Positions 668-56,607 of a stretch of DNA of 56,845 nucleotides are shown piece by piece. The translations under genes were made by a program, and so were the position numbers. This DNA comes from a virus. Lineage: Duplodnaviria; Caudoviricetes. Below the pieces are notes generated by a model. It worked only from the letters and a program-made list of their open reading frames with translations. It was not told the DNA's origin and made no database searches. Position 1 is the stretch's first letter; each line of letters begins with the position of its first letter. The stretch is taken from IMG/VR virus record IMGVR_UViG_3300036985_002500, positions 1-56,845 of that record. The stretch is one strand, 5' to 3'.

Positions 668-1261
668 ATGGAAGCAAAACTAATTAAAAAAGTAGATTAT
701 TATAATAATAAAGATATATATTACTCACTTATTATTAAAGACGAATGTATTGGTACTACTCATAATTTATTTAATAGGCAAATGAATGACAATAATGGAA
801 ATGCATTTTTAAATAAACTATCCCTCGAAAACTGCCAAAAAATTGAGAATGGATATGATTTGGATGAGTTAGCTGATGAATACTTTAGAAGTGTTGACAG
901 TGTTACTGTTCTATGGAGACGTATAGATTTTAAAAAAGGCTTCCAAAAAGCACTTGAAATTCTTGGTGATAAGAAGTTTACTGAGAAGGATTTAAAGAAA
1001 GCTTACCAGTATGGTAGAACCCCTGATGCAATGTTTTATTTAGAAGATGGAACTAAGGAAATCGTAACAACAAATATTGAAAATTTTATCCAATCACTAC
1101 AACAAACTGAATGGGATGTTATTATCCTTGAAGAGCCTATTGATTTAGCTTTTTATGAGAATGGCAATAGATTTCCTATTGATGCTAATCTGCCTGATAG
1201 ATTTAAATACAAACCTCTCCTTGATGAAGATGGATGCATTATATTAAAACGTAAGATATGA
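668..1261 (+). CDS. Hypothetical phage protein
   Basis: 197-aa ORF, 1 bp after the previous stop, ATGA overlap with the next gene. Confidence 0.8.
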   Translation: MEAKLIKKVDYYNNKDIYYSLIIKDECIGTTHNLFNRQMNDNNGNAFLNKLSLENCQKIENGYDLDELADEYFRSVDSVTVLWRRIDFKKGFQKALEILGDKKFTEKDLKKAYQYGRTPDAMFYLEDGTKEIVTTNIENFIQSLQQTEWDVIILEEPIDLAFYENGNRFPIDANLPDRFKYKPLLDEDGCIILKRKI

Positions 1262-1503
1262 AAGAAGAAACAGTAGGAGATGCTGCTGCAGAATATGCTA
1301 ATAAAAAGTATGCAACTGACAAAGGTTATCCTGAAGAAGATTGGTATATATCTTGGTTAAGTTTTAGAGAAGGAGCTAAATGGCAAGAAGCTAAAATGTA
1401 TAGTGAGGAAGATATGATTGAGTTTGCTAAATTTTCTCAAACAGATGAGCATGAATTAAGATCAGTAAATGTAGGATTGTTAAATGAATTTAAGAAGCAA
1501 TAG
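1258..1503 (+). CDS. Hypothetical phage protein (MYSEEDM-type motif)
   Basis: 81-aa ORF, translationally coupled. Confidence 0.75.
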   Translation: MKEETVGDAAAEYANKKYATDKGYPEEDWYISWLSFREGAKWQEAKMYSEEDMIEFAKFSQTDEHELRSVNVGLLNEFKKQ

Positions 1504-1504
1504 T

Positions 1505-1714
1505 ATGAAATATTCACATGCAAGTTTACTTATATTTATTGTATATTTATTTTTATGGTTTATTTTATTAATAATAGTATCTGTTAATAAGAAAGATGAT
1601 AAACCTAAGTATAAGACTAAAAAAGAATATGCTTTTGTAGAGCCAACTGATTGGGCTAGTGATTTAACAATGAATGATACTAAGAAAGAGTTTCTGGAGT
1701 ATTTAAATAAATGA
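1505..1714 (+). CDS. Small single-pass membrane protein
   Basis: Hydrophobic LLIFIVYLFLWFILLIIVSV then a basic tail; ATG at 1505 is more likely than 1484. Confidence 0.65.
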   Translation: MKYSHASLLIFIVYLFLWFILLIIVSVNKKDDKPKYKTKKEYAFVEPTDWASDLTMNDTKKEFLEYLNK

Positions 1715-1805
1715 AACCCATGCAGTTTCTATTCGTCAATAGTCTTACATGGGGATTTACCATAGGTTATATGATTGAGTAAGTGTGCTAATTCTAGCAG
1801 ATATT

Positions 1806-1895
1806 ACAGCAATTCAATTTCCCTTACGCAGAAAAAGACCTAAGCGGGTGCGCTCTGCAAGAACTCCTACACATTATAAGCGTCTCAGGTACTGT
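1806..1895 (-). ncRNA. Candidate structured (pseudoknotted) ncRNA
   Basis: GC-enriched intergenic segment with closing stem ACAGUA/UGCUGU and crossing helices; TATCTTTG (-7) at 1901-1908 on the - strand. Confidence 0.45.
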
Positions 1896-1986
1896 TGATA
1901 CAAAGATATGAAAAAAGCTAATATGTTAACCAAAACCATCATAAATAGTAATAAATAGCTAATATGATGGCTAAAACAAACAAATT

Positions 1987-2346
1987 ATGATTACAATAGT
2001 TAAAGGAAGCTATCTTCTTTTGTTAAGTTACAATCCGTGTGATGTGTTTACTTATTTCAATGTAAATGAAATGCATGGTTTATCTTTAGAAGAGTGTCAA
2101 GCGTACAACAATACTACAGATGATGCTTACATAGCAGGATGGAGTAACTTTATCCCTTGGAACATGGAATTAAGATATGTATTTATCAATCTATCTAGAT
2201 GCGGTACAGACATTGAAACATTTGGTTTGATAATGCATGAGTTAATGCACCAGTCTTTTCACATGCATAAAGATGAAGAAGATATAATAACATGGGCTGA
2301 GTTAGAATCCTATGAAGTATTTAAACTTGTAAAAGAAAACTTATGA
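1987..2346 (+). CDS. Small zincin-like metallopeptidase
   Basis: HExxH motif (IMHELMHQ) with downstream Glu residues. Confidence 0.55.
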   Translation: MITIVKGSYLLLLSYNPCDVFTYFNVNEMHGLSLEECQAYNNTTDDAYIAGWSNFIPWNMELRYVFINLSRCGTDIETFGLIMHELMHQSFHMHKDEEDIITWAELESYEVFKLVKENL

Positions 2347-2558
2347 CGGCAGTAGAATGGTTAGTTGAGCAAATTAAACAGAATGTACATAATTCATTTG
2401 AAGAATTTGAATTGTTAATTGAACAAGCCAAAGAAATGGAAAAGAAACAGATAATTGATGCAAGAATGACTGCACCACTATTGCCAAGCATTGAGAAATC
2501 AATATACTTAAATGAAGCAGAACAATATTACAACGAAACATTTAATAAAGAATTATGA
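2343..2558 (+). CDS. MTAVEW...AEQYYNETF family paralog 1
   Basis: Shares N- and C-terminal motifs with 2659-2850 and 3048-3251. Confidence 0.85.
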   Translation: MTAVEWLVEQIKQNVHNSFEEFELLIEQAKEMEKKQIIDARMTAPLLPSIEKSIYLNEAEQYYNETFNKEL

Positions 2559-2647
2559 AACAAATAAAAATAGGTAGTTATTGGCTAAGCGTAAGTGATA
2601 TTACTTTTCGTCAATCCAATTATCCCAAAAGAATTATTAACCTTTAA
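2555..2647 (+). CDS. 30-aa micro-ORF (MKQIKIGSYW...)
   Basis: ATGA overlap with the upstream stop; fills the gap; translated by eye. Confidence 0.4.
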   Translation: MKQIKIGSYWLSVSDITFRQSNYPKRIINL

Positions 2648-2658
2648 ATCAAAATAAC

Positions 2659-2850
2659 ATGACAGCAGTAGATTTTATAATCCAAAGATTAGCGAAAAAT
2701 GGAATTTTGCATAGTTCTGATATAGCAGAAGCTAATGAGTTGTTTAAGAAACAAATAATAAAAGCGGTATATGATTCTATGGGAACAAACTTTGATCCTA
2801 ATATGGGTAGAGCAGAATTGTATTATAATGAAACATATAAATCAGAATAA
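2659..2850 (+). CDS. MTAV...AELYYNETY family paralog 2
   Basis: Paralogous termini. Confidence 0.85.
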   Translation: MTAVDFIIQRLAKNGILHSSDIAEANELFKKQIIKAVYDSMGTNFDPNMGRAELYYNETYKSE

Positions 2851-2851
2851 G

Positions 2852-3028
2852 ATGGACAAAAGACAGATTGAAAAATACTTAGAAAGAAAGGGAATGAACC
2901 CAAAAGATAGACTTAAAAAGAATGGTGGTGGTCAGTATTTAGATAATTTTTTAATTGAGTTTGCTCAAGATATTAAAGAAAAAACTATCAATGATGCTGT
3001 AACTGAATTAAAAAGAATGAGATATTAA
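2852..3028 (+). CDS. Hypothetical protein (MDKRQIEK..., 58 aa)
   Basis: ATG lies within the boundary repeat; the track's 2771 start overlaps the previous gene. Confidence 0.7.
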   Translation: MDKRQIEKYLERKGMNPKDRLKKNGGGQYLDNFLIEFAQDIKEKTINDAVTELKRMRY

Positions 3029-3047
3029 TACTTTAAATCAGAATAAG

Positions 3048-3251
3048 ATGACAGCAGTTGAGTGGATAGAAGAAACTATTGATAAAAAGCACATGGGTGC
3101 ATTTTTAAAATCAATAATCGAACAAGCTAAAGAATTAGAGAAGCAACAGATAATTGATTCTTTTAATAAAGGATTTATAACCGACCAATGGGATAAAAGC
3201 AAAGAAAATAAAGCAGAACAATACTACAACGAAACCTTTAAATCAGAATAG
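3048..3251 (+). CDS. MTAVEW...AEQYYNETF family paralog 3
   Basis: Paralogous termini. Confidence 0.85.
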   Translation: MTAVEWIEETIDKKHMGAFLKSIIEQAKELEKQQIIDSFNKGFITDQWDKSKENKAEQYYNETFKSE

Positions 3252-3252
3252 T

Positions 3253-3432
3253 ATGCCAGATATAGCAATGTGTGAGGGTAAAGGTTGCAATGTGAAAGAA
3301 TCGTGTTATCGGTTCACAGCAACTCCTTCAGATTATTGGCAGTCATACGTGATGCCTGAAGTAAAAGATGGTAAGTGTGACTTATATTGGCCAACTGAAT
3401 CTAGTGAAAAACTTGACAAAAGAAAAGAATAA
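3253..3432 (+). CDS. Small Cys-rich protein (MPDIAMCEGKGC...CYRF...C), 59 aa
   Basis: Translated by eye, absent from the ORF track; four Cys; starts in the boundary repeat. Confidence 0.75.
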   Translation: MPDIAMCEGKGCNVKESCYRFTATPSDYWQSYVMPEVKDGKCDLYWPTESSEKLDKRKE

Positions 3433-3539
3433 CACAAAGTGTGTTATACAAAATGTGTATCAATATCAACAAATAAATTAATTTTTTTTTTGATTTATTA
3501 AATTTTAATTATATCTTTACGATGTAAACAAATAACAAA

Positions 3540-3836
3540 ATGAATAAAGTTAAAGGTATAAAAGACTTAATGTCTAATGGTAGATATAAACCATTACATT
3601 TAAGCGATGCGTTAAAAGCAAATGGTGTCCCTGGAAATTGGGATTGTTATCAGAATGTTTATAATTTAATCAATGGACATATAGTCCCAAAAGATGCTTA
3701 TGTTTTAATAGTGATAGCAGAATTATTAAACTTAGATTTAAAATCAATAATCTATAGATACTCAAATAAATCTGAAGACTCTATTCAAATAGAACAAACA
3801 AGCAAGCCAATAGTTCTTTCTGAATTAAATTGGTAA
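3540..3836 (+). CDS. Putative HTH DNA-binding protein
   Basis: XRE-like pattern (VYNLINGHIVP..LIVIAELL); promoter-like TATCTTTA upstream. Confidence 0.45.
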   Translation: MNKVKGIKDLMSNGRYKPLHLSDALKANGVPGNWDCYQNVYNLINGHIVPKDAYVLIVIAELLNLDLKSIIYRYSNKSEDSIQIEQTSKPIVLSELNW

Positions 3837-3866
3837 TAAGTAAGTAGTAACAATTAATTTTTTTTT

Positions 3867-4880
3867 ATGAATTTAAAAGATTTATCAAGACCATTGGATA
3901 TTTCCGATGTAGATTTTCGTGTACAATCCATAAACAATGGTGGATATGCAACAATCCTAGCGTACAAGGATGCTAGAGTAGATATGAATAGGCTAGATGA
4001 GGTATGCGGAATTGGATACTGGAAGAAAGACTATCGCTCAATAGACGGAAGACTATATTGTGGGGTAGCAATTTACAATGATGTTATCTCTGAGTGGATA
4101 TGGAAATGGGATGTTGGTACAGAATCAATGACCGAGAAGGAGAAAGGTATGGCATCCGATGCATTTAAGCGTGCTTGTTTCAATATTGGAATTGGTCGTG
4201 AACTTTATGACTACCCAATCATTAGCGTAAAACTAAATGATAACGAGTATACTAAGGATGGTGGTAGACCTAAGCAAACATTCAATCTAAAGATAAGAGA
4301 TTGGAGATGGTATTCAGAATTTACAGATGGAAGACTATCGTTTATTGCTGCTAAAGATGAATCAGGTAAGCTTAGATTTAAGTGGGGTGAAATGAAACCT
4401 AAAGTTGAAGAGCCAACATTTAAGCAGGCTGCAGCATCTCCAGTAACAGAAGTTGAAGTAATATCCGTAGAGCCAATAGCTGTAGCGACTGAAAGCGAAG
4501 AGGCTGATGTGTCAGGATTCTTAAAGAAACCAATAGATGCAGATCCGAATAGAGAGATTTTATCTATGGAGTATAAGGCTATATATGGAAAACTTCCTCA
4601 TGGAAAGATGTCTTCAGAAAGAATATCAGAAGAGATTAAGAAATCAATTAATCTTATAGAAGATGAAGAGAAGAATGTTCCAGAAGCCGAAATGGAGGCT
4701 AATGGTAATGCTTATTCTTTGTTAGTAGAAGAGGCAAGAACTTATAAGAGTCCTGGTGATTTTGTTGGATGGGCTAAGGGTATAGCTGCAGAACTAATAG
4801 AAAATAATGAAGATACTGCTCTTATAGATAGCTTCAAGGCATTTTGTAATACTTACTACGCTGAATTAACTGAGAAGTAA
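3867..4880 (+). CDS. Rad52/Sak-like single-strand annealing protein
   Basis: LAYKDARVDMNRLDEVCG and SDAFKRACFNIGIGRELY motifs, acidic C-terminal tail. Confidence 0.85.
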   Translation: MNLKDLSRPLDISDVDFRVQSINNGGYATILAYKDARVDMNRLDEVCGIGYWKKDYRSIDGRLYCGVAIYNDVISEWIWKWDVGTESMTEKEKGMASDAFKRACFNIGIGRELYDYPIISVKLNDNEYTKDGGRPKQTFNLKIRDWRWYSEFTDGRLSFIAAKDESGKLRFKWGEMKPKVEEPTFKQAAASPVTEVEVISVEPIAVATESEEADVSGFLKKPIDADPNREILSMEYKAIYGKLPHGKMSSERISEEIKKSINLIEDEEKNVPEAEMEANGNAYSLLVEEARTYKSPGDFVGWAKGIAAELIENNEDTALIDSFKAFCNTYYAELTEK

Positions 4881-5362
4881 TGGATATATTTAAGAAAGAA
4901 GAAACACAATCAAAAGTATTAGTCTTGGAGAATATCTCTAAGGCTAATCTTAAGTCAATGGCAGATTCTATAATTGACAATGTTATGGAAGGTAATTCAG
5001 ATGCTCTAAAGGAATACATAAAGGCAAAAGGAATTATAGAAATAGCAAATACAATAGTAGATGGTCTAAAGGAAATGGCTATCAGGGAAGCTGACAACTA
5101 TGGAGGTGGCGAGAAAGTATTAGGATGTGAGATACAAACTAAATCCACAGCTACAACTTATTCATTCGACCACGATGAAGAGTGGAGTGTTCGTAATAAT
5201 ACGATAGAACAATTAAAAGAACAGCAAAAGCTTAGAGAGAAACAAATGCTTGATGCTATTAATTATTCTCAAGTAGTAAATGATGATGGAGAGGTAATAC
5301 ACCCTGCCATAGTAAAGAAACAAGGATCAACAACAATCGCAATACTAATACCAAAGAAATAA
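4880..5362 (+). CDS. Hypothetical recombination-module protein
   Basis: 160 aa, TAATG-coupled to the annealase. Confidence 0.8.
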   Translation: MDIFKKEETQSKVLVLENISKANLKSMADSIIDNVMEGNSDALKEYIKAKGIIEIANTIVDGLKEMAIREADNYGGGEKVLGCEIQTKSTATTYSFDHDEEWSVRNNTIEQLKEQQKLREKQMLDAINYSQVVNDDGEVIHPAIVKKQGSTTIAILIPKK

Positions 5363-8848: not shown

Positions 8849-9154
8849 ATGTTTGAACAAATGAAGAAGTCAAAGGATAAAGTTTCTTATCTATTAAGAA
8901 ATCATCCTAAATTAAGAGATAGCGACTATAAATTAATTGCTACCTATTGGCACAAAGAAATAGGAGAAGACATCTCATCTATGTCTGCATTTGATTTACT
9001 TAAAAAAATAGCAGAAGGAAAGCTAACTAGTTCAGAATCAATAAGAAGGGTAAGACAAAAGATTCAAGAAGATAATCCTGAATTGCGTGGAGAAGTATGG
9101 CTGAATAAGCAATTAAAAAGCGAAGAGGTTAGAGAAAACATAAAGCATTTATAA
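8849..9154 (+). CDS. Hypothetical phage protein
   Basis: 101-aa ORF in operon. Confidence 0.75.
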   Translation: MFEQMKKSKDKVSYLLRNHPKLRDSDYKLIATYWHKEIGEDISSMSAFDLLKKIAEGKLTSSESIRRVRQKIQEDNPELRGEVWLNKQLKSEEVRENIKHL

Positions 9155-9366
9155 TGATAGGAGTATTAATAGACAAAGGATCTTGGTTTGTTAGGTATGT
9201 AGACTCAAAACAAAATATAAATGACATACCATTATACCATGAGCAGGCAATGATACTAGATAAATCAAAAGAAAACACATTCGTTTCATTTGAAAAGATA
9301 TGGGTTAAGAATAAGCTTTGGGTTGCCTTAATAAAATTTATTGACGAAGAAAAAATGAACGAATGA
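9154..9366 (+). CDS. Hypothetical protein
   Basis: 70 aa, coupled at both ends. Confidence 0.65.
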   Translation: MIGVLIDKGSWFVRYVDSKQNINDIPLYHEQAMILDKSKENTFVSFEKIWVKNKLWVALIKFIDEEKMNE

Positions 9367-10007
9367 ATATAAATTATAACGAAAGAATAGAATTATTAAA
9401 AGATAAGCTTCACGTATTAGAACAATGTAATAGATTGTACAATTATTTTTATCCAATTAAAAAATCTAAAAATAGCTATGTCGTTGAGATGAGAAGATTA
9501 GTTGGTCAGCAATTATATGACATAGGAATGTCAAAAGTAGATATATCAGGAATATTTGGGAAAGACCATTCTACAGTAGTTCATTTGCTAGGCATAGAAA
9601 GTAGTATAGATGTTCAAAAAGAAGTGGCTGATAAATATAAACTATGGATTGAGTTAGGTTTATATCCAGATTCTATATTTGTTTTAGAAGTTTCTGATAT
9701 ACATTTTAATGGACATAAGCATACTTTAGATTATATTTTAACTGACGAACTAACTTATGACAAAAACAGTAAAGAAAAGTATATGTCTAGATCTATAAGT
9801 AAATACTTTAAGGATAGAATGATGAATTTAATTTCATCAGAAGATTATACCTCATCTAGAGCTTCTCTTAATGATGCGTTTATTAATAAGGTTAAGTTTT
9901 CTCATCCTGATAACTATAAGTTAATAGAAGAGAAAGAAAGTGCATACAAAGAAAATATGCTGATTATAAATAGTAAAAATATTATTAATTATGATAGACA
10001 TATTTGA
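9363..10007 (+). CDS. Protein with DnaA domain IV-like HTH
   Basis: MSKVDISGIFGKDHSTVVH resembles the DnaA C-terminal RDHTTV signature. Confidence 0.6.
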   Translation: MNINYNERIELLKDKLHVLEQCNRLYNYFYPIKKSKNSYVVEMRRLVGQQLYDIGMSKVDISGIFGKDHSTVVHLLGIESSIDVQKEVADKYKLWIELGLYPDSIFVLEVSDIHFNGHKHTLDYILTDELTYDKNSKEKYMSRSISKYFKDRMMNLISSEDYTSSRASLNDAFINKVKFSHPDNYKLIEEKESAYKENMLIINSKNIINYDRHI

Positions 10008-10305
10008 TGAAAAACCTCAACCTAGATTATACATAGCTGATTTATATATAAAAGCTATAACAAGAAAGAAAACTAAGAAGCAAGTTCTAACAAGTACTAG
10101 GGATTTAGTCATCCCAAATACATCAATAGTATTATTAGATAACAAGTTTCCAACGAAAAAATCAGAAAATATATTCTTCAAAAAGATATTTGATAAGTAT
10201 ATAGATAAGGGAGACATAAACAATGTTTCCTTTAAGATAGAAAGAATGGAAAATATAAAATTATCATCCAATTTATCTTATAAATTTAATTATAACGAAC
10301 ATTAA
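9991..10305 (+). CDS. Hypothetical basic protein
   Basis: 104-aa ORF in operon. Confidence 0.6.
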   Translation: MIDIFDEKPQPRLYIADLYIKAITRKKTKKQVLTSTRDLVIPNTSIVLLDNKFPTKKSENIFFKKIFDKYIDKGDINNVSFKIERMENIKLSSNLSYKFNYNEH

Positions 10306-10322
10306 TAGTAACATTTTTTTTG

Positions 10323-10330
10323 TATATTTG
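10323..10330 (+). promoter_or_regulatory. TAnnTTTG promoter element
   Basis: TATATTTG 22 bp before the ATG at 10353. Confidence 0.55.
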
Positions 10331-10352
10331 TTATATTATTTAAATAAACACC

Positions 10353-10949
10353 ATGGAAAAACAATTATTACAAGTCTTAGAGTTTCAAAAGGCATTCAAT
10401 GTAGAAATTCCTACTACTCCTAAGATGTTAAGAAAGACCAGAGCTAAACTTAGACAATCCTTATTGGAAGAAGAAGTTAAAGAGTTGCTTGAGGCAAAGA
10501 ATATTATAGACGTAGCTGATGCTATAGTAGATATTCTTTACATAACTTATGGAACGGCTCATGAGTACGGTATCGCTGATAGATTAATTCTTCTATTCGA
10601 TGAGATTCATAAGTCAAACATGACTAAGGTTGGCCCTGATGGGAAAGCATTATTCAGAAGAGATGGTAAAGTATTAAAGCCAGAGACTTATACAGAGCCA
10701 AACTTAAGACCTATTCTTGAGCGTGACTTTTCAATATACAAGTCAAGTGATTTAGCTAAGGAACTTGCTGAAATAGAATCTAATATTGTAAATGGAATTA
10801 TTCATAATACAATAAAAAAGAATCTATCATTTTTTGACAGAATATTATTCTCTATTTATAATAAGTTAGAATCTATTCTTGAGAAGAAAGTTCAAGTTGA
10901 ATTTCCAAAGGTAATTGTGTACGGAAAAGAACATGTTATCAAAGGGTAG
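10353..10949 (+). CDS. MazG-like (all-alpha) NTP pyrophosphohydrolase
   Basis: LLEEEVKEL, DAIVDILYITYG, EIHKSNMTK, DGKVLKP motifs. Confidence 0.85.
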   Translation: MEKQLLQVLEFQKAFNVEIPTTPKMLRKTRAKLRQSLLEEEVKELLEAKNIIDVADAIVDILYITYGTAHEYGIADRLILLFDEIHKSNMTKVGPDGKALFRRDGKVLKPETYTEPNLRPILERDFSIYKSSDLAKELAEIESNIVNGIIHNTIKKNLSFFDRILFSIYNKLESILEKKVQVEFPKVIVYGKEHVIKG

Positions 10950-11328
10950 GAAATATGGCAATAAAAAAATAGAGCATGATGGAGTTAAATTTGACTCCAA
11001 GCTTGAGTTCTATTGCTATAATTTATTGAATTCCCTTGAGTTTAAATTTGAATTTCAACAAAAGTTAGTTCTTATTGACAAGTTCAAATACAATACAGAG
11101 TCTATTAGAGCCATAACGATGATAATAGACTTCGTATTATCTCATGGAGATACAATTATATACATTGATACAAAAGGATTCGCTACAGAGGTATCTAAAA
11201 TAAAGTATAAGATGCTAAAGAATCATTTAAAGAATGAAATTAACACAAGAGTTATATGGCTTCACTCACAAAAAGAAGTCAATGAATTTTTAAACAATCT
11301 AAAAAACAATAAAGATGTCAACAATTAA
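10915..11328 (+). CDS. DUF1064-like PD-(D/E)XK endonuclease
   Basis: KYGNKK..DGVKFDSKLE, IDF, IDTKGF. Confidence 0.8.
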   Translation: MCTEKNMLSKGRKYGNKKIEHDGVKFDSKLEFYCYNLLNSLEFKFEFQQKLVLIDKFKYNTESIRAITMIIDFVLSHGDTIIYIDTKGFATEVSKIKYKMLKNHLKNEINTRVIWLHSQKEVNEFLNNLKNNKDVNN

Positions 11329-11710
11329 CAAAGTAATTCTATTAGGTAACGTAGGTTCAGTAGATGTAAAAGAATTTGATGGTGGTAAAAAGCTAGTTCA
11401 AGTATCATTAGCAACTTCTGAAAGTTATAAAAAAGGAGATGAGTACGTAAACAAGACAGAGTGGCATAGATGTATATTCGCTATACCTAATTTGGCTGAT
11501 AGAGCTGTAAATATTAAGAAGGGTGATAAGATATATGTAGAAGGAAGTGTATCAACAAACTCTTGGACTTCAAAAGAAGGAGAAAAGAAAGAGAATAAAG
11601 AGATTTCTTGCATTATGTTTAAGACTTTTCAGAAAGCTGATTCATCAAAAGAAGATTTGTCTAATGCATCTATTCCTCAAGGATCTTTAGTAGATGATAT
11701 TATATTTTAA
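11315..11710 (+). CDS. ssb: Single-stranded DNA-binding protein
   Basis: INKVILLGNVG, SLATSE, TEWHR, KGDKIYVEG and an acidic/aromatic C-terminus. Confidence 0.92.
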   Translation: MSTINKVILLGNVGSVDVKEFDGGKKLVQVSLATSESYKKGDEYVNKTEWHRCIFAIPNLADRAVNIKKGDKIYVEGSVSTNSWTSKEGEKKENKEISCIMFKTFQKADSSKEDLSNASIPQGSLVDDIIF

Positions 11711-11804
11711 AATAAGTTACACTAAGCAGGTTACTGTAAACAAAACTACGGCTGCATTGAGTTGTGGCTGTATATTTGTCCAGTTTTTTTTATAATAAAC
11801 GGGA

Positions 11805-11937
11805 CATAACATTTTGTAGATAAGCGAAGGCAAAGATTTATAAACAAAAATTTTAACTTAAAAACAAATATAATTATGAAAACGAAAACATCAATTTACC
11901 ACCGCACCTTTGCTTTTGCTTATGCGCTGTTAGTAGC
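11805..11937 (+). mobile_element. attC-like site 1 (long loop containing the ORF start)
   Basis: CATAAC(11805)...ATAAGCGAAGGCAAAG(11820-35)...CTTTGCTTTTGCTTAT(11908-23)...GTTAGTAGC(11929-37). Confidence 0.6.
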
Positions 11938-12145
11938 TGTTATTTTTTGCGGTTGTGAGCCGATAAATAATGAGCAACAAAAGAAAGTAGAAGCAACAGA
12001 ATTAAACGATTATTCTGTAAGCAATGAAGGTGTACAAATATTAACTATTGATAGTTGCGAATATGTTTGGTGTAAAAATGGTCATGGTGCAGGATTAACA
12101 CATAAGGGGAACTGTAAATTTTGTGCAGAACGTAGCAAGAAATAA
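11876..12145 (+). CDS. Predicted lipoprotein with Cys/His-rich C-terminus, on the cassette
   Basis: Basic N-terminus, hydrophobic stretch, lipobox-like FCGC; IDSCEY...THKGNCKFC. Confidence 0.8.
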   Translation: MKTKTSIYHRTFAFAYALLVAVIFCGCEPINNEQQKKVEATELNDYSVSNEGVQILTIDSCEYVWCKNGHGAGLTHKGNCKFCAERSKK

Positions 12146-12147
12146 TT

Positions 12148-12200
12148 GCTACTAACATCCGTATAGGCGCACGTTTCAATGGCGTTTATACCTTGTTATG
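12148..12200 (+). mobile_element. attC-like site 2
   Basis: GCTACTAAC-ATCC-GTATAGGCGC-loop-GCGTTTATAC-CTT-GTTATG, immediately after the stop codon. Confidence 0.65.
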
Positions 12201-12256
12201 AAAATTATAATCCGCCAAAATCATAATTATTTTATAATTTTGGCACAGTATAAAAT

Positions 12257-12329
12257 AGTGAGGTGGCGTAATGAGGCGAGGTTGCCAAGTCCTATATGGT
12301 TGCTTTACGGTTCGAGTCCGCCCTCACTA
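12257..12329 (+). tRNA. Degenerate tRNA-like element (anticodon not assignable)
   Basis: Acceptor AGTGAGG/CCTCACT, GGTTCGAGTCC T-loop, 73 nt; D and anticodon arms irregular. Confidence 0.5.
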
Positions 12330-12346
12330 CTAATTATTAATAATAA

Positions 12347-12453
12347 GACTAAGTAGCGTAAGTGGGAATGAATACCACCTTGGGTAACGTGTTTGCTAGA
12401 ATAGTATTCTTTAAATAGGCAGATAGATGAGAGTTCGAATCTCTCCTTAGTCA
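12347..12453 (+). tRNA. Expanded tRNA-like element (107 nt)
   Basis: Perfect GACTAAG/CTTAGTC acceptor and GAGAG-TTCGAAT-CTCTC T arm; enlarged D and anticodon loops. Confidence 0.6.
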
Positions 12454-12467
12454 CTAAATTTAAAATT

Positions 12468-12701
12468 ATGAATGAATACACATTGCAATTATCCGCAGAG
12501 GATATAGGAGAAATTATAACTATAATTAGAGTTCAACATCTTAAGATGCACGCTGAACCTTTCGCTAGAAAGATAGGTATAAAAGAAAAGTTGTTATTAA
12601 CTGTTGAAGAAGGAAGAGGCCCACATGGATTGCTAGTCCTTAAAAAGATTGATAGCGCATTTCATAACATAAAAGTATCTGTTAATATAGGTATATTATG
12701 A
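12468..12701 (+). CDS. XRE-family HTH regulator
   Basis: IGEII..IR...M..E.FARKIGI....L..VEEG pattern. Confidence 0.6.
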   Translation: MNEYTLQLSAEDIGEIITIIRVQHLKMHAEPFARKIGIKEKLLLTVEEGRGPHGLLVLKKIDSAFHNIKVSVNIGIL

Positions 12702-12729
12702 GATCAATAATAATGAAGAGACACGTATC

Positions 12730-12754
12730 CTTATTTAGAATGATTATAAATAAG
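12730..12754. promoter_or_regulatory. Palindromic operator (Fur-box-like)
   Basis: CTTATTTAGAAT-G-ATTATAAATAAG at the convergence of the two arms; same motif three times at 56.2-56.4 kb. Confidence 0.5.
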
Positions 12755-12816
12755 AGATATATCCGAAGAAATAATTTAAGTAAGAGAATAAATAATGAAG
12801 AAGGAGATTAATCTTT

Positions 12817-13101
12817 TTATTTAAAAAATTGATGCTTCTTATCTGCTCTATTCTTTGATTGAGATTGGCTTTTTGTATTTGTGCTGCTAGTATGAGCCAC
12901 ATCCATACCATCCTTATTGCCATGAGTTCCATTCTTTCTATTTATAGCTTGTAATATAGCACGATACTTTCTTCTCGCTGGAGTTGAGTGATACCTTTTA
13001 TTGTATACGTCTCTCTTCTTTGCTGCTTTAGGATTCTCGTGATAGTATTTAGCTGTCTTGCTTTGACCTTTCTGAGTTCCTGCTAGTGTATTTCTTGCCA
13101 T
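12817..13101 (-). CDS. Small basic protein, degenerate HNH-like
   Basis: DGMDVAH...SKNRA pattern. Confidence 0.6.
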   Translation of the reverse strand: MARNTLAGTQKGQSKTAKYYHENPKAAKKRDVYNKRYHSTPARRKYRAILQAINRKNGTHGNKDGMDVAHTSSTNTKSQSQSKNRADKKHQFFK

Positions 13102-13102
13102 A

Positions 13103-13678
13103 TTACTTAGTTGGTCTAAATGTTTTTCTATAGTCCTCTAATCTATTCAACCATCCTTTAAGAAATTTAGAATTCTTAGTTCCAGGTCTTCCTATATATT
13201 TAAAGAATCTTTCTCTCTCCGCAAGTAATGCATCGAATAATACTTGTGCGTTTATAAGATTAGCTGCTGCAATAGTTTTGTTTCCTAACGCTCCGTCTTT
13301 ATCAATATCAACTCCACAATTAATAATCGCTTGTTGTAAGGAAGTTACAGCTTGTTTCTTGCCTGATCCCCATGCCATTCCTGTCGTAAATATAGCAACA
13401 TTTTGCGACAAAAATTCATCTGCTCTTACTGAGTTCCAGTATAAAGTTTTGAATACATTGAACCAATCTTCGTTAGACATGTTAAAGAATCTAGCATCTT
13501 TATCTTTACCGTAGAATTCCTTCCATACAGCATAAGTTATTCCAATGTTAGTATGGTATCCACCTAAACCTTTAAATGGCGTAGGACAAGGAAATTTAGA
13601 TGCTGAGTCAGCCTTATCTCTAGAGAGTCCACCTTCCCATTTCTTCGTAAATGTAATATACTTATCTATCAATTCCAT
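13103..13678 (-). CDS. Endolysin, GH108-like with peptidoglycan-binding C-terminus
   Basis: WEGG, TNIGIT, DG.LG.KT, FLKGWLNRL. Confidence 0.88.
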   Translation of the reverse strand: MELIDKYITFTKKWEGGLSRDKADSASKFPCPTPFKGLGGYHTNIGITYAVWKEFYGKDKDARFFNMSNEDWFNVFKTLYWNSVRADEFLSQNVAIFTTGMAWGSGKKQAVTSLQQAIINCGVDIDKDGALGNKTIAAANLINAQVLFDALLAERERFFKYIGRPGTKNSKFLKGWLNRLEDYRKTFRPTK

Positions 13679-13681
13679 ATC

Positions 13682-14179
13682 TTAGTTTTTAATGTCTTTG
13701 TAAGTGTCTGATACTTTAGTTATTGTTGTTCTAATCTTTCTAACAATACTAAATGTACTTTTTAAAATGTTATTACCACTAATATCGAACCAATTTTCAT
13801 TGATACTAGATAATTCCATAAGACCAAATATACACAATAACATATTAGTAAACAAAGCTGGTGTAGGTATTACAAAAGAATAACCTAATGCGCTTAGTAG
13901 GCTAGAACTAAATGGGGTTAATGCATAGAAGTCTAATGGAAATAAAGCTCCTGCAAGTATATAATATCCTGCTGCTTTAAAAATATATCCTCGTCTAAGC
14001 ATTTTAGATTTAAATACATCTCTGAATTTTTTATCTTCTACACACGCTATCTTTTTTAAAGCTATTAACTTCACGATTGTATCTAGGAATATAATACTCA
14101 TTAAAATAATTGTACAAAGCTCTATCGGAGCAAAAAATGAGAATATTGACAAAGCTATAAGTATTAAATTCGTTTTCAT
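13682..14179 (-). CDS. Holin
   Basis: Several TM helices, ELSSINEN motif, directly upstream of the endolysin. Confidence 0.75.
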   Translation of the reverse strand: MKTNLILIALSIFSFFAPIELCTIILMSIIFLDTIVKLIALKKIACVEDKKFRDVFKSKMLRRGYIFKAAGYYILAGALFPLDFYALTPFSSSLLSALGYSFVIPTPALFTNMLLCIFGLMELSSINENWFDISGNNILKSTFSIVRKIRTTITKVSDTYKDIKN

Positions 14180-56166: not shown

Positions 56167-56363
56167 CTTATTTAGATTCATTCTAAATAGCTGATTTCCA
56201 GATCTTTTTTCCCATTTTGAGAATGTTTCCCAAATTGAGAATATCACTCACTTACCTTATTTAGAATCATTCTAGATAACGATGGTAACTTTGCTTATAG
56301 TAAAAAAATACCACATTACCTAATTTAACGTAAAAAAAAACCTTATTTAGAATCATTATTGAT
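56167..56363. promoter_or_regulatory. Three palindromic Fur-box-like operators
   Basis: 19-mers at 56170, 56259 and 56345, all preceded by CTT, upstream of TATATTTG (56420-27). Confidence 0.55.
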
Positions 56364-56607
56364 TATACATTTTTTTTAAAATAAGTAAAATTTTATGTTA
56401 TTTATCCAAAGTAGTTTTGTATATTTGTACTCGTAGGGCGTAGGTATTTTAAGCCCTTTATACAGAGAATGGTCAAAAATTGACGTGACCAAGTACTGCC
56501 CATTGGTGAATCCTGCCTAGAGAAATTAGATTTTCAATAAATGGTTTTTCAATGGGAAAGGTATGTTTAAAAATGTAATTTAATTAATAACTATAAATAA
56601 TACGATT

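Follow-up and report, generated by a model that had tools for sequence, protein, structure and literature searches.

The phage DNA of IMG/VR record IMGVR_UViG_3300036985_002500 (56,845 nucleotides (nt), here called the window) holds a small lipoprotein gene whose start codon lies inside a hairpin resembling an integron attC site. This raises the question of whether the gene travels as a cassette with its own start, or whether the hairpin is a fixed site that lends a start to cassettes lacking one. An earlier reading made from the letters of the window (the sequence-only reading) had proposed the second answer, with a crossover inside the signal peptide. Our comparison of the window with related loci leads us to regard a different answer as probable: the gene, which encodes 89 amino acids (aa), is a complete single-gene cassette (approximately 11810-12155), belongs to an integron-like system in phages of Bacteroidota and moves with its own start. 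The features concerned are the following.

11810-12155, + strand: the proposed whole cassette, 346 nt, beginning with the C of one TAAC and ending with the A that precedes the C of the following TAAC; within it are the hairpin, the start and body of the lipoprotein gene, and the right arm.
11807-11932, + strand: site 1 (attC-like, long class, 126 nt), with TAAC 11807-11810, a 5-nt spacer 11811-11815, 5' arm 11816-11835, loop 11836-11907, 3' arm 11908-11927, T 11928 and GTTA 11929-11932.
11876-12145, + strand: open reading frame (ORF) of 89 aa; signal peptide with lipobox in codons 1-27 (11876-11956), mature part of 62 aa.
11928-11950, + strand: left arm of the cassette-end inverted repeat; GTTA and its 3' extension, coding for LLVAVIFC.
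12135-12157, + strand: right arm of the cassette-end inverted repeat; last codons, stop and 12 nt past the stop, ending in TAAC.
12153-12198, + strand: site 2 (short class, 46 nt), with TAAC, a 4-nt spacer, a 10-pair stem, a 3-nt spacer and GTTA; no convincing gene lies behind it.

Site 1 has stem arms of 20 nt and a loop of 72 nt that contains the ATG at 11876, and its 3' arm is read as codons 11-17. Codon 18 is CTG (11927-11929) and codon 19 is TTA (11930-11932), with G|TT exactly between them. These positions can be read directly and are as the sequence-only reading gave them. Its statement that removal of the cassette, by joining G 11929 to 12196-12201, leaves CTG TTA TGA is also correct. 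The inverted repeat (11928-11950 and 12135-12157) spans 23 nt per arm, is 87% complementary and brackets the mature part. Taken alone, the sites and the repeat of the window are no better than chance, and their significance rests on the relatives.

Hairpin sites, unit boundaries and a linked recombinase in related phages

Related loci were scanned for the series TAAC, spacer, stem, spacer, GTTA, with TAAC, GTTA and the stem all required. We used two sets of loci: 80 viral loci, kept of 219, that hold the lipoprotein (442,271 nt) and include members with quite different signal peptides, and 80 loci kept from the 289 viral contigs that encode relatives of a recombinase described below (832,524 nt). 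The first set contains 103 sites, versus 4 in shuffled sequences, and the second 310, versus 5. The sites form arrays of up to 8 with a spacing of 300-500 nt, and their lengths cluster near 47, 65-73, 87 and 125 nt. A TAAC...GTTA hairpin spans the ORF start in 23 of 66 distinct related loci. Seven loci have different, compensating stems at the same place (L022, L023, L029, L030, L033, L034 and L037), and in most loci the terminal TAAC of the cassette is directly followed by a further site, alike in build and different again in its stem.

The stems covary. RNAalifold was run on 61 long sites that differ in their arms and had been chosen because they have a stem; it returned 20 pairs, 18 of them with changes on both sides. 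Across these sites 93% of the cells were paired, compared with 52.7% after shuffling and 36-45% when the partner was slid. One T-A pair is invariant (61/61), a G.T pair occurs in 56 of the 61, and only TAAC and GTTA are invariant across all of them. The enrichment and the covariation in relatives bear out the proposal that site 1 is a real attC-like hairpin of the recombination type. The stems of the recombinase loci contain 601 G.T pairs versus 50 A.C mismatches, and this excess identifies the strand carrying the genes and the recombinase gene as the folding strand. For site 1 itself, the centroid fold has a long-range stem on the + strand and none on the - strand. At the base of its stem the window differs from the family consensus by two changes, one per arm, with the result that two Watson-Crick pairs become one wobble and one mismatch and Val17 is replaced by Ala; the changes may reflect the decay of a solitary site.

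That the start codon and the first 17-19 codons lie inside the site is a general design. Among 339 distinct sites, an ATG with an ORF reaching at least 40 codons past GTTA was found in 114 of the 205 long sites (>100 nt) and in 8 of them on the opposite strand; for the 134 sites of ≤100 nt the counts were 8 and 5. The distance from the ATG to the end of GTTA has a median of 57 nt, the same value as in the window. The G of GTTA occupies codon position 1 in 69 sites, position 3, as in the window, in 40 and position 2 in 5. This mixed phase excludes a general in-frame fusion at GTTA, which the sequence-only reading had expected.

The extent of the unit was assessed from the ends of blocks with at least 85% identity between different loci, counting an end as near a motif when it fell within 25 nt. 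In total, 137 block ends lie at TAAC versus 7 at GTTA. Of the left ends (158), 118 are near the C of TAAC (102 between -17 and -1), 1 is at GTTA and 39 are far from both; of the right ends (141), 19 are at TAAC, 6 at GTTA and 116 far away, mostly inside variable bodies. When units with the same body were paired between different loci, both flanking hairpins were common to 179 pairs. Eleven pairs shared the body's own 5' hairpin and differed in the next one, and the reverse was never seen. Four loci (L014, L016, L018 and L021) have one mature part in common and differ directly after the downstream TAAC. Because of these three results, we take a unit to consist of a hairpin and the gene behind it, bounded by TAAC on both sides; in the window it is 11810-12155. 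Approximately 25 loci are near-identical in DNA, synonymous positions included, over two stretches, one beginning at the TAAC that precedes the hairpin and ending shortly behind the lipobox, the other made up of the final ~45 nt as far as the TAAC behind the stop codon, and the sequence outside the two bounding TAAC motifs is unrelated between loci.

The two ends of a unit are complementary. When the 10 nt that follow GTTA were compared with the complement of the 10 nt preceding TAAC of the next site, agreement was 7.18 of 10 positions (n = 56), and 79% of the cases have at least 4 contiguous matches. In the controls, the same comparison gave 3.33 of 10 with the site's own TAAC (n = 91) and 3.44 of 10 for random pairs (n = 455). 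By our reading of the listed pairs, the match typically breaks at position 7, which is a G.T pair on the sense strand. The 23-nt inverted repeat of the window is one case of this general complementarity. The property is symmetric and is by itself silent on which hairpin belongs to which body; that assignment is settled by the block ends and the co-segregation of body and 5' hairpin.

The arrays are linked to a gene for a tyrosine recombinase. In locus L043 a gene for a 271-aa enzyme (3982-4797) follows the last site on the same strand, and homologues occupy the equivalent position in L034 and L017. Among the 64 recombinase loci with at least 1 kb of upstream sequence, 60 have a site within 3 kb upstream and 53 have two or more, compared with a downstream site in only 3 of 75; the totals are 232 sites upstream versus 4 downstream. 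The L043 enzyme matches Pfam Phage_integrase. Its best NCBIfam match is XerA_Arch (206.7 bits, cut-off 220), and it reaches 167.8 bits, in two stretches, on the integron integrase model TIGR02249 (cut-off 265). Against the PDB it matches XerA (4a8e) in one stretch with 164 bits and IntI4 (2a3v) in two stretches with 131.6 bits. Judged by these comparisons, the array-linked recombinase (267-271 aa) is Xer/XerA-like and no IntI. Among cultured phages, Cellulophaga phage Ingeline (40%) and Polaribacter phage Leef_1 (37%) have a related integrase; no TAAC...GTTA site was found within 6 kb of the Ingeline_1 integrase, and we claim no cultured example. None of seven small ORFs tested from the L043 array (671-3919) belongs to a Pfam family. 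In L034, the ORF after the recombinase gene (4475-5200) resembles a DNA methyltransferase by eye only.

We propose the following mechanism. Each cassette is headed on the sense strand by a folding site made of TAAC, spacer, covarying stem and GTTA. In long-class sites the loop holds the ribosome-binding region and the ATG, and the 3' arm and GTTA are read as N-terminal codons. Cassettes would most likely be cut and joined within or next to TAAC on the folding strand, with the cut not placeable inside TAAC. Classical attC sites are cut at AA|C on the folded bottom strand, which corresponds to the proposed cut. The short Xer/XerA-like tyrosine recombinase (~270 aa) whose gene closes the arrays on their downstream side in related phages is the likely enzyme. 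The 23-nt inverted repeat is the pairing of the cassette's two ends and would form the base stem of the site in the excised circle. Such end complementarity is the classical argument of Hall, Stokes and colleagues for a circular form of the cassette, in which joining the ends restores the base of the site. The comparisons show how the sites and arrays are built, that the stems covary, that the recombinase gene is linked to the arrays, where the units end and that their ends are complementary; the action of the recombinase on the sites, the exact cut and the circular intermediate are what we infer here.

In the window (11807-11816) and at the same place in related sites, TAAC and the usual T-rich spacer ending in TTTG resemble the -7 promoter box of Bacteroidota, TAnnTTTG, with one extra base. 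If this likeness is real, each cassette would hold a promoter element inside its recombination core. A promoter search gave no match of the sigma-70 type on the + strand upstream of the ATG at 11876 (6 matches in total, 4.2 expected), with a tool that does not cover promoters of the Bacteroidota type.

Evidence against the cassette reading, and rival explanations

Several observations weigh against a moving cassette. A search for loci that differ by exactly one cassette found none, which leaves the reading without a direct recombination product. The 56,845-nt record, 84% complete, contains no tyrosine recombinase (PF00589), and the array recombinase is present in only 4 of 32 lipoprotein-holding records. 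The invariance of TAAC and GTTA and the 93% pairing are partly built in by the scan, so the unbiased figures are the enrichments over shuffles. Some loci are one contig taken from two collections or are near-duplicates, which somewhat inflates the 310-versus-5 comparison, the folding-strand counts, the 11:0 ratio and the recombinase link. Folded as single-stranded DNA, site 1 has a z-score of +0.62, and 148 of 200 shuffles fold equally well or better; moreover, its two changes from the family consensus weaken the base of its stem. An RNA element would account just as well for a sense strand that folds with G.U pairs. Finally, hairpins and bodies reassort and some leaders precede unrelated bodies, as described below, for which the cassette reading needs extra homologous or illegitimate recombination within the unit.

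Public sequencing runs gave further information. Of the 24 runs found, all in the form of Logan contigs, four were compared with the region; such contigs lose rare variants. In run X7 the leader module (11813-11955) forms a separate 143-nt contig with a depth of 718, against a backbone depth of 8, and in run X1 a 42-nt contig over 12116-12156 has a depth of 118, against 13. Loose contig ends fall at 11806/11807 and 12156/12158, and the contigs of X2, X4 and X7 do not cover 11958-12098. The depths and loose ends agree with a module present in many genomes. The contig joints 11807->12207, 11789->12214 and 11758->12249 carry or may carry other letters between their sides; they yield no clean empty site (X2, X7) and no recombination product, and thus also count against the cassette reading.

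The observations on unrelated bodies come from the exact 29-nt leader, for which viral contigs gave 22 instances and metagenome contigs 42. Three of these 64 occurrences are cut by contig ends, and the 61 complete ones encode 40 distinct proteins. Thirty-two belong to the lipoprotein family (31 by pattern, plus L202), and seven have unrelated or truncated bodies (the family L167/L193/L208, then L194, L195, L210 and the short L222). All instances keep the left arm through the lipobox. The 25-nt right arm is kept in all but L222; L167, L193, L208 and L210 read it in another frame, in which its TAG is the stop, and the arms are therefore conserved as DNA independently of coding. In the proteins with unrelated bodies, the sequence changes over 27 nt beyond G|TT, behind the lipobox Cys and ahead of the conserved right arm. 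The expectation that the leader would be found fused to unrelated ORFs thus holds for 7 of the 40 proteins, but not its placement of the junction at L|LVA. Reassortment is seen in pairwise comparisons: L008 and L023 are 66.7% identical in the hairpin and 83.1% in the body, L023 and L022 89.7% and 52.8%. Directly behind GTTA, all compared pairs agree at 90-100% over 30 nt. Exchange inside the unit happens, and the invariant arms would permit ordinary homologous recombination.

These data bear on the idea that the hairpin and the two arms are a portable adaptor for expression and export, which is loaded with unrelated payloads by directed exchange between the arms or at the GTTA side. We consider it unlikely. 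It keeps some probability because the same leader and arms occur with at least five unrelated kinds of body, because the right arm is kept in another frame and because hairpins and bodies reassort. If it were true, an integron-like system would build proteins combinatorially and give captured fragments a start and a route to the cell surface.

Alternatively, the hairpins could be mRNA structures of the 5' leader and early codons, with the end pairing closing a processed monocistronic mRNA as a panhandle, and the shuffling could be due to ordinary recombination at short motifs. Such shuffling has been proposed for the promoter-early stem-loops (PeSLs) of T4-type phages, which show that regulatory stem-loops can mediate modular exchange and form mini-circles (Arbiol et al. 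2010, PMC2839356). The strand that folds is the sense strand, with its large excess of G.U over A.C; the ATG has a constant position within an open loop, and all units are co-oriented. Against this, different sites share only 4-10 nt, too little for homologous exchange, yet the block ends pile up there, and the arrays have a strong polar link to a tyrosine recombinase gene. A search of seven array loci with Rfam at E ≤ 0.1 returned no family except one unrelated weak match (DUF805b), and at E ≤ 10 the region of the window gave chance-level matches only and no family. We judge it improbable that RNA structure is the whole explanation. The two readings are compatible and do not exclude each other.

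The sequence-only reading placed the crossover at G|TT (11929|11930), so that a start-less cassette (11930-12195) would receive its ATG and half of its signal peptide from site 1 as a fixed expression site. Some data fit this. The N-termini differ between subfamilies up to about L18 and are constant from LLVAVIFCGC onwards, hairpin and body types are reassorted, the identical leader precedes the seven deviating proteins, and the symmetric end complementarity suits this orientation too. Nevertheless, the block ends lie at TAAC and hardly at GTTA, and discordant pairs with the same body always keep their own 5' hairpin, which speaks against cassettes without a start. The four loci that diverge directly after the downstream TAAC indicate that site 2 is no part of the body, and the mixed codon phase indicates that leaders and bodies are not freely interchangeable. 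In loci with unrelated bodies, similarity continues through the whole lipobox, 27 nt beyond G|TT. The abrupt change of N-termini predicted at L|LVA was not seen, as homologues are colinear across it, and leaders that differ do so with compensating changes in the upstream arm, which points to divergence of one hairpin and not to a swap. This model is largely refuted by the block ends, the codon phase and the 5'-hairpin co-segregation, and we regard it as quite unlikely. The observation on which it was built is confirmed, and its interpretation is partly supported.

It is very unlikely that the 23-nt inverted repeat consists of inversion sites that flip the mature part and so switch the lipoprotein on or off. 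The repeat does bracket the mature part, and a reverse ORF (12045-12179, open for 44 aa and containing LVAIISC) keeps the frame open after inversion. However, none of the 61 complete leader instances has a reversed body, and the repeat is one case of a rule that applies to all kinds of cassette. No strand-changing joint occurs in the contigs of the four runs, which says little because contigs lose rare variants.

Chance, that is, a fortuitous long-range stem and inverted repeat around an ordinary small gene in an AT-rich intergenic region, has next to no probability: although the statistics of the window alone are within the range of shuffles, it is refuted by the conservation, covariation and enrichment in relatives. 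Those statistics are as follows. At a lax threshold the window has 3 sites, compared with 0-3 in 15 shuffles. At a stricter threshold it has 2, compared with 0-1 in 20 shuffles, with three overlapping matches. One inverted repeat with at least 20 of 23 matches exists in the window, and such a repeat is also present in 1 of 10 shuffles. The fold of site 2 is weak when taken alone (z = -1.14).

Comparison with integrons and other modular systems

Like integrons (class 1, and the sedentary chromosomal ones of Vibrio), the system consists of arrays of short, mostly single-gene cassettes. The sites measure 46-130 nt and are conserved in structure and not in sequence, except for the AAC...GTT core; as in attC, folding favours one of the two strands. 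Each cassette has ends that are complementary to each other (7.18 of 10 in the arrays, 87% for the repeat of the window), and the array lies upstream of the recombinase gene in the orientation of that gene. The intI gene and the bottom strand of attC have the same relative layout. An attC site is recognized as an imperfect hairpin of about 55-140 nt with conserved structure and AAC and GTT triplets, and the site family, with site 1 at 126 nt and site 2 at 46 nt, agrees with this description, with the reservation that TAAC and GTTA were required by the scan.

The differences are equally clear. The array-linked enzyme, of 267-271 aa, is Xer/XerA-like and stays at 167.8 bits on TIGR02249, for which the cut-off is 265. 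The site stands 5' of the gene, and the genes are on the folding strand. In integrons the site follows the ORF on its 3' side, and the cassette ORFs lack promoters and depend on the promoter Pc for transcription. Unlike in integrons, the loop of long-class sites holds the start codon and the 3' half of the site is translated; end pairing extends over at least 14 nt, compared with 7 in integrons; and the carriers are phages of Bacteroidota. The core boxes fit RYYYAAC and GTTRRRY only partly: ACATAAC of the window agrees at 6 of 7 positions and GTTAGTA at 5 of 7. The system works like an integron but departs from one in two defining respects, as it has no IntI-type enzyme and its site heads the gene. 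Capture of the integron type is thought to need a protein segment specific to IntI and sites that trail promoterless genes. For integrons, a crossover at G|TTRRRY and a more active bottom strand are described by Qi et al. 2023 (PMC9892861).

The same source describes clusters of attC sites without an integrase (CALINs) in phage genomes, including that of a Polaribacter (Flavobacteriia) phage, and reports that IntI1 recombined five of six tested phage CALIN sites (PMC9892861). Like these, attC-type sites in virulent phages without an integron integrase, the window has two sites (11807-11932 and 12153-12198, the latter weak alone) and no tyrosine recombinase in an 84%-complete record. The phage CALIN sites were found by standard attC predictors and treated as parts of bacterial integrons carried by phages; as far as the portion of the paper used here describes them, they have no dedicated short recombinase, no site that heads a gene and no start codon in the site (PMC9892861). 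Our literature search found no description of the present phage cassette system, and these CALINs were the nearest match (PMC9892861).

PeSLs, which flank accessory ORFs in hyperplastic regions, are a looser parallel: they are small regulatory stem-loop modules made of a sigma-70 promoter and a terminator, and they recombine by homology (PMC2839356). Unlike PeSLs, the sites studied here share only a 4-nt core and their structure, have no sigma-70-type promoter before the ATG on the + strand and are linked to a tyrosine recombinase gene.

The closest known kind of system to the proposal of the sequence-only reading is that of vsa in Mycoplasma pulmonis, vsp in M. bovis and the in-frame inversions of Bacteroides fragilis. 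In these the site lies in the 5' coding part, and one expression site with a start and signal peptide serves silent bodies. They work by inversion between site copies in one genome, whereas here no second body, inverted form or crossover at that place was found.

If the cassette reading is right, a large phage family has retained the logic of cassettes, namely hairpin sites, units with complementary ends and an array next to a recombinase gene, using a short Xer-like enzyme and sites that stand before the genes and are in part translated. This would offer a concrete and testable route by which phages trade small accessory genes, for instance one for a surface lipoprotein.

The lipoprotein and its genomic setting

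A word-seeded protein search, which favours proteins with exact words of the query, returned 294 candidates, of which 288 were homologues at E ≤ 0.01; most have 80-95 aa, and the whole query was covered. We aligned 35 of the 120 homologues listed, picked across the identity range. They are colinear, with a nearly invariant leader through the lipobox and C-terminus and a hypervariable middle. The invariant residues are C27, D59, C61, Y63, H76, K77, N79, C80 and C83. The N-terminus has basic residues (K2, K4, R10) and a hydrophobic stretch (12-24). FCGC is an unusual lipobox; Cys27 is kept in 35 of 35, and the relatives end their lipobox in GC, SC or AC. By inspection, the product is probably an exported lipoprotein precursor, and the invariant C61, H76, C80 and C83 could bind metal or form disulfides.

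The 89-aa protein has no Pfam family; it matches PHROG 19356 (E = 1.6e-05), whose function is not known, and only unnamed viral lipoprotein clusters in the protein atlas, with scores <0.9. An AlphaFold2 (AF2) model has a mean pLDDT of 73, with a helix at 5-25, five strands and a C-terminal helix, and Foldseek returned no match to it in the PDB at E ≤ 0.001. Llp of phage T5 is a small lipoprotein that acts in superinfection exclusion. A similar role here is a guess by analogy, one that would fit the hypervariable middle.

The DNA site strongly constrains the N-terminus of the protein, as the signal peptide is near-invariant even at synonymous positions and the mature part is saturated with changes. 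For annotation, N-terminal conservation of this sort is no sign of selection at the protein level.

The record is of the linear class, with a GC content of ~32%. Its + strand carries phage replication genes (DUF1064, MazG-like and SSB, the last at 11315-11710), and its - strand the lysis and structural genes. The lipoprotein cassette is solitary and is placed between the SSB gene and a tRNA region. There ARAGORN called one tRNA-Arg (CCT) at 12256-12330, where an Rfam scan at E ≤ 10 gave no match; an ORF at 12198-12356 overlaps this call, and Rfam has a weak tRNA match at 12383-12453 (15.9 bits, cut-off 29). The nearest relative, L081, shares 87% nucleotide identity with 9003-11652 of the window and 84.6% with 12433-14136. 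The cassette is absent from the interval that separates its SSB gene from the next conserved gene, which holds tRNA-like sequence only, in a stretch longer than the tRNA-like stretch of the window. L083 also lacks the cassette at the equivalent place and has a hairpin only. The absence from both relatives indicates that the cassette is accessory. Solitary cassettes such as 11810-12155 would mark insertion hot spots in annotation.

No GenBank phage has a DNA match to 10900-13200. At the protein level, GenBank phages gave weak matches to the C-terminal part of the lipoprotein only, in Cellulophaga phage Nekkels and one uncultured phage. Seven of 10 matches in bacterial genome bins were in bins titled Bacteroidota.

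A third TAAC...GTTA candidate in the window, at 56277-56400 (124 nt), has A/T-rich arms and is within the chance range for the window. Just upstream of the cassette, a terminator-like stem was called at 11747-11772. It is followed by a 10-pair hairpin with one mismatch (11776-11806), which ends exactly at the TAAC that opens the cassette and whose arms follow the cassette-end pattern. This hairpin may be what is left of a unit that was emptied, or it may simply belong to the terminator region behind the SSB gene.

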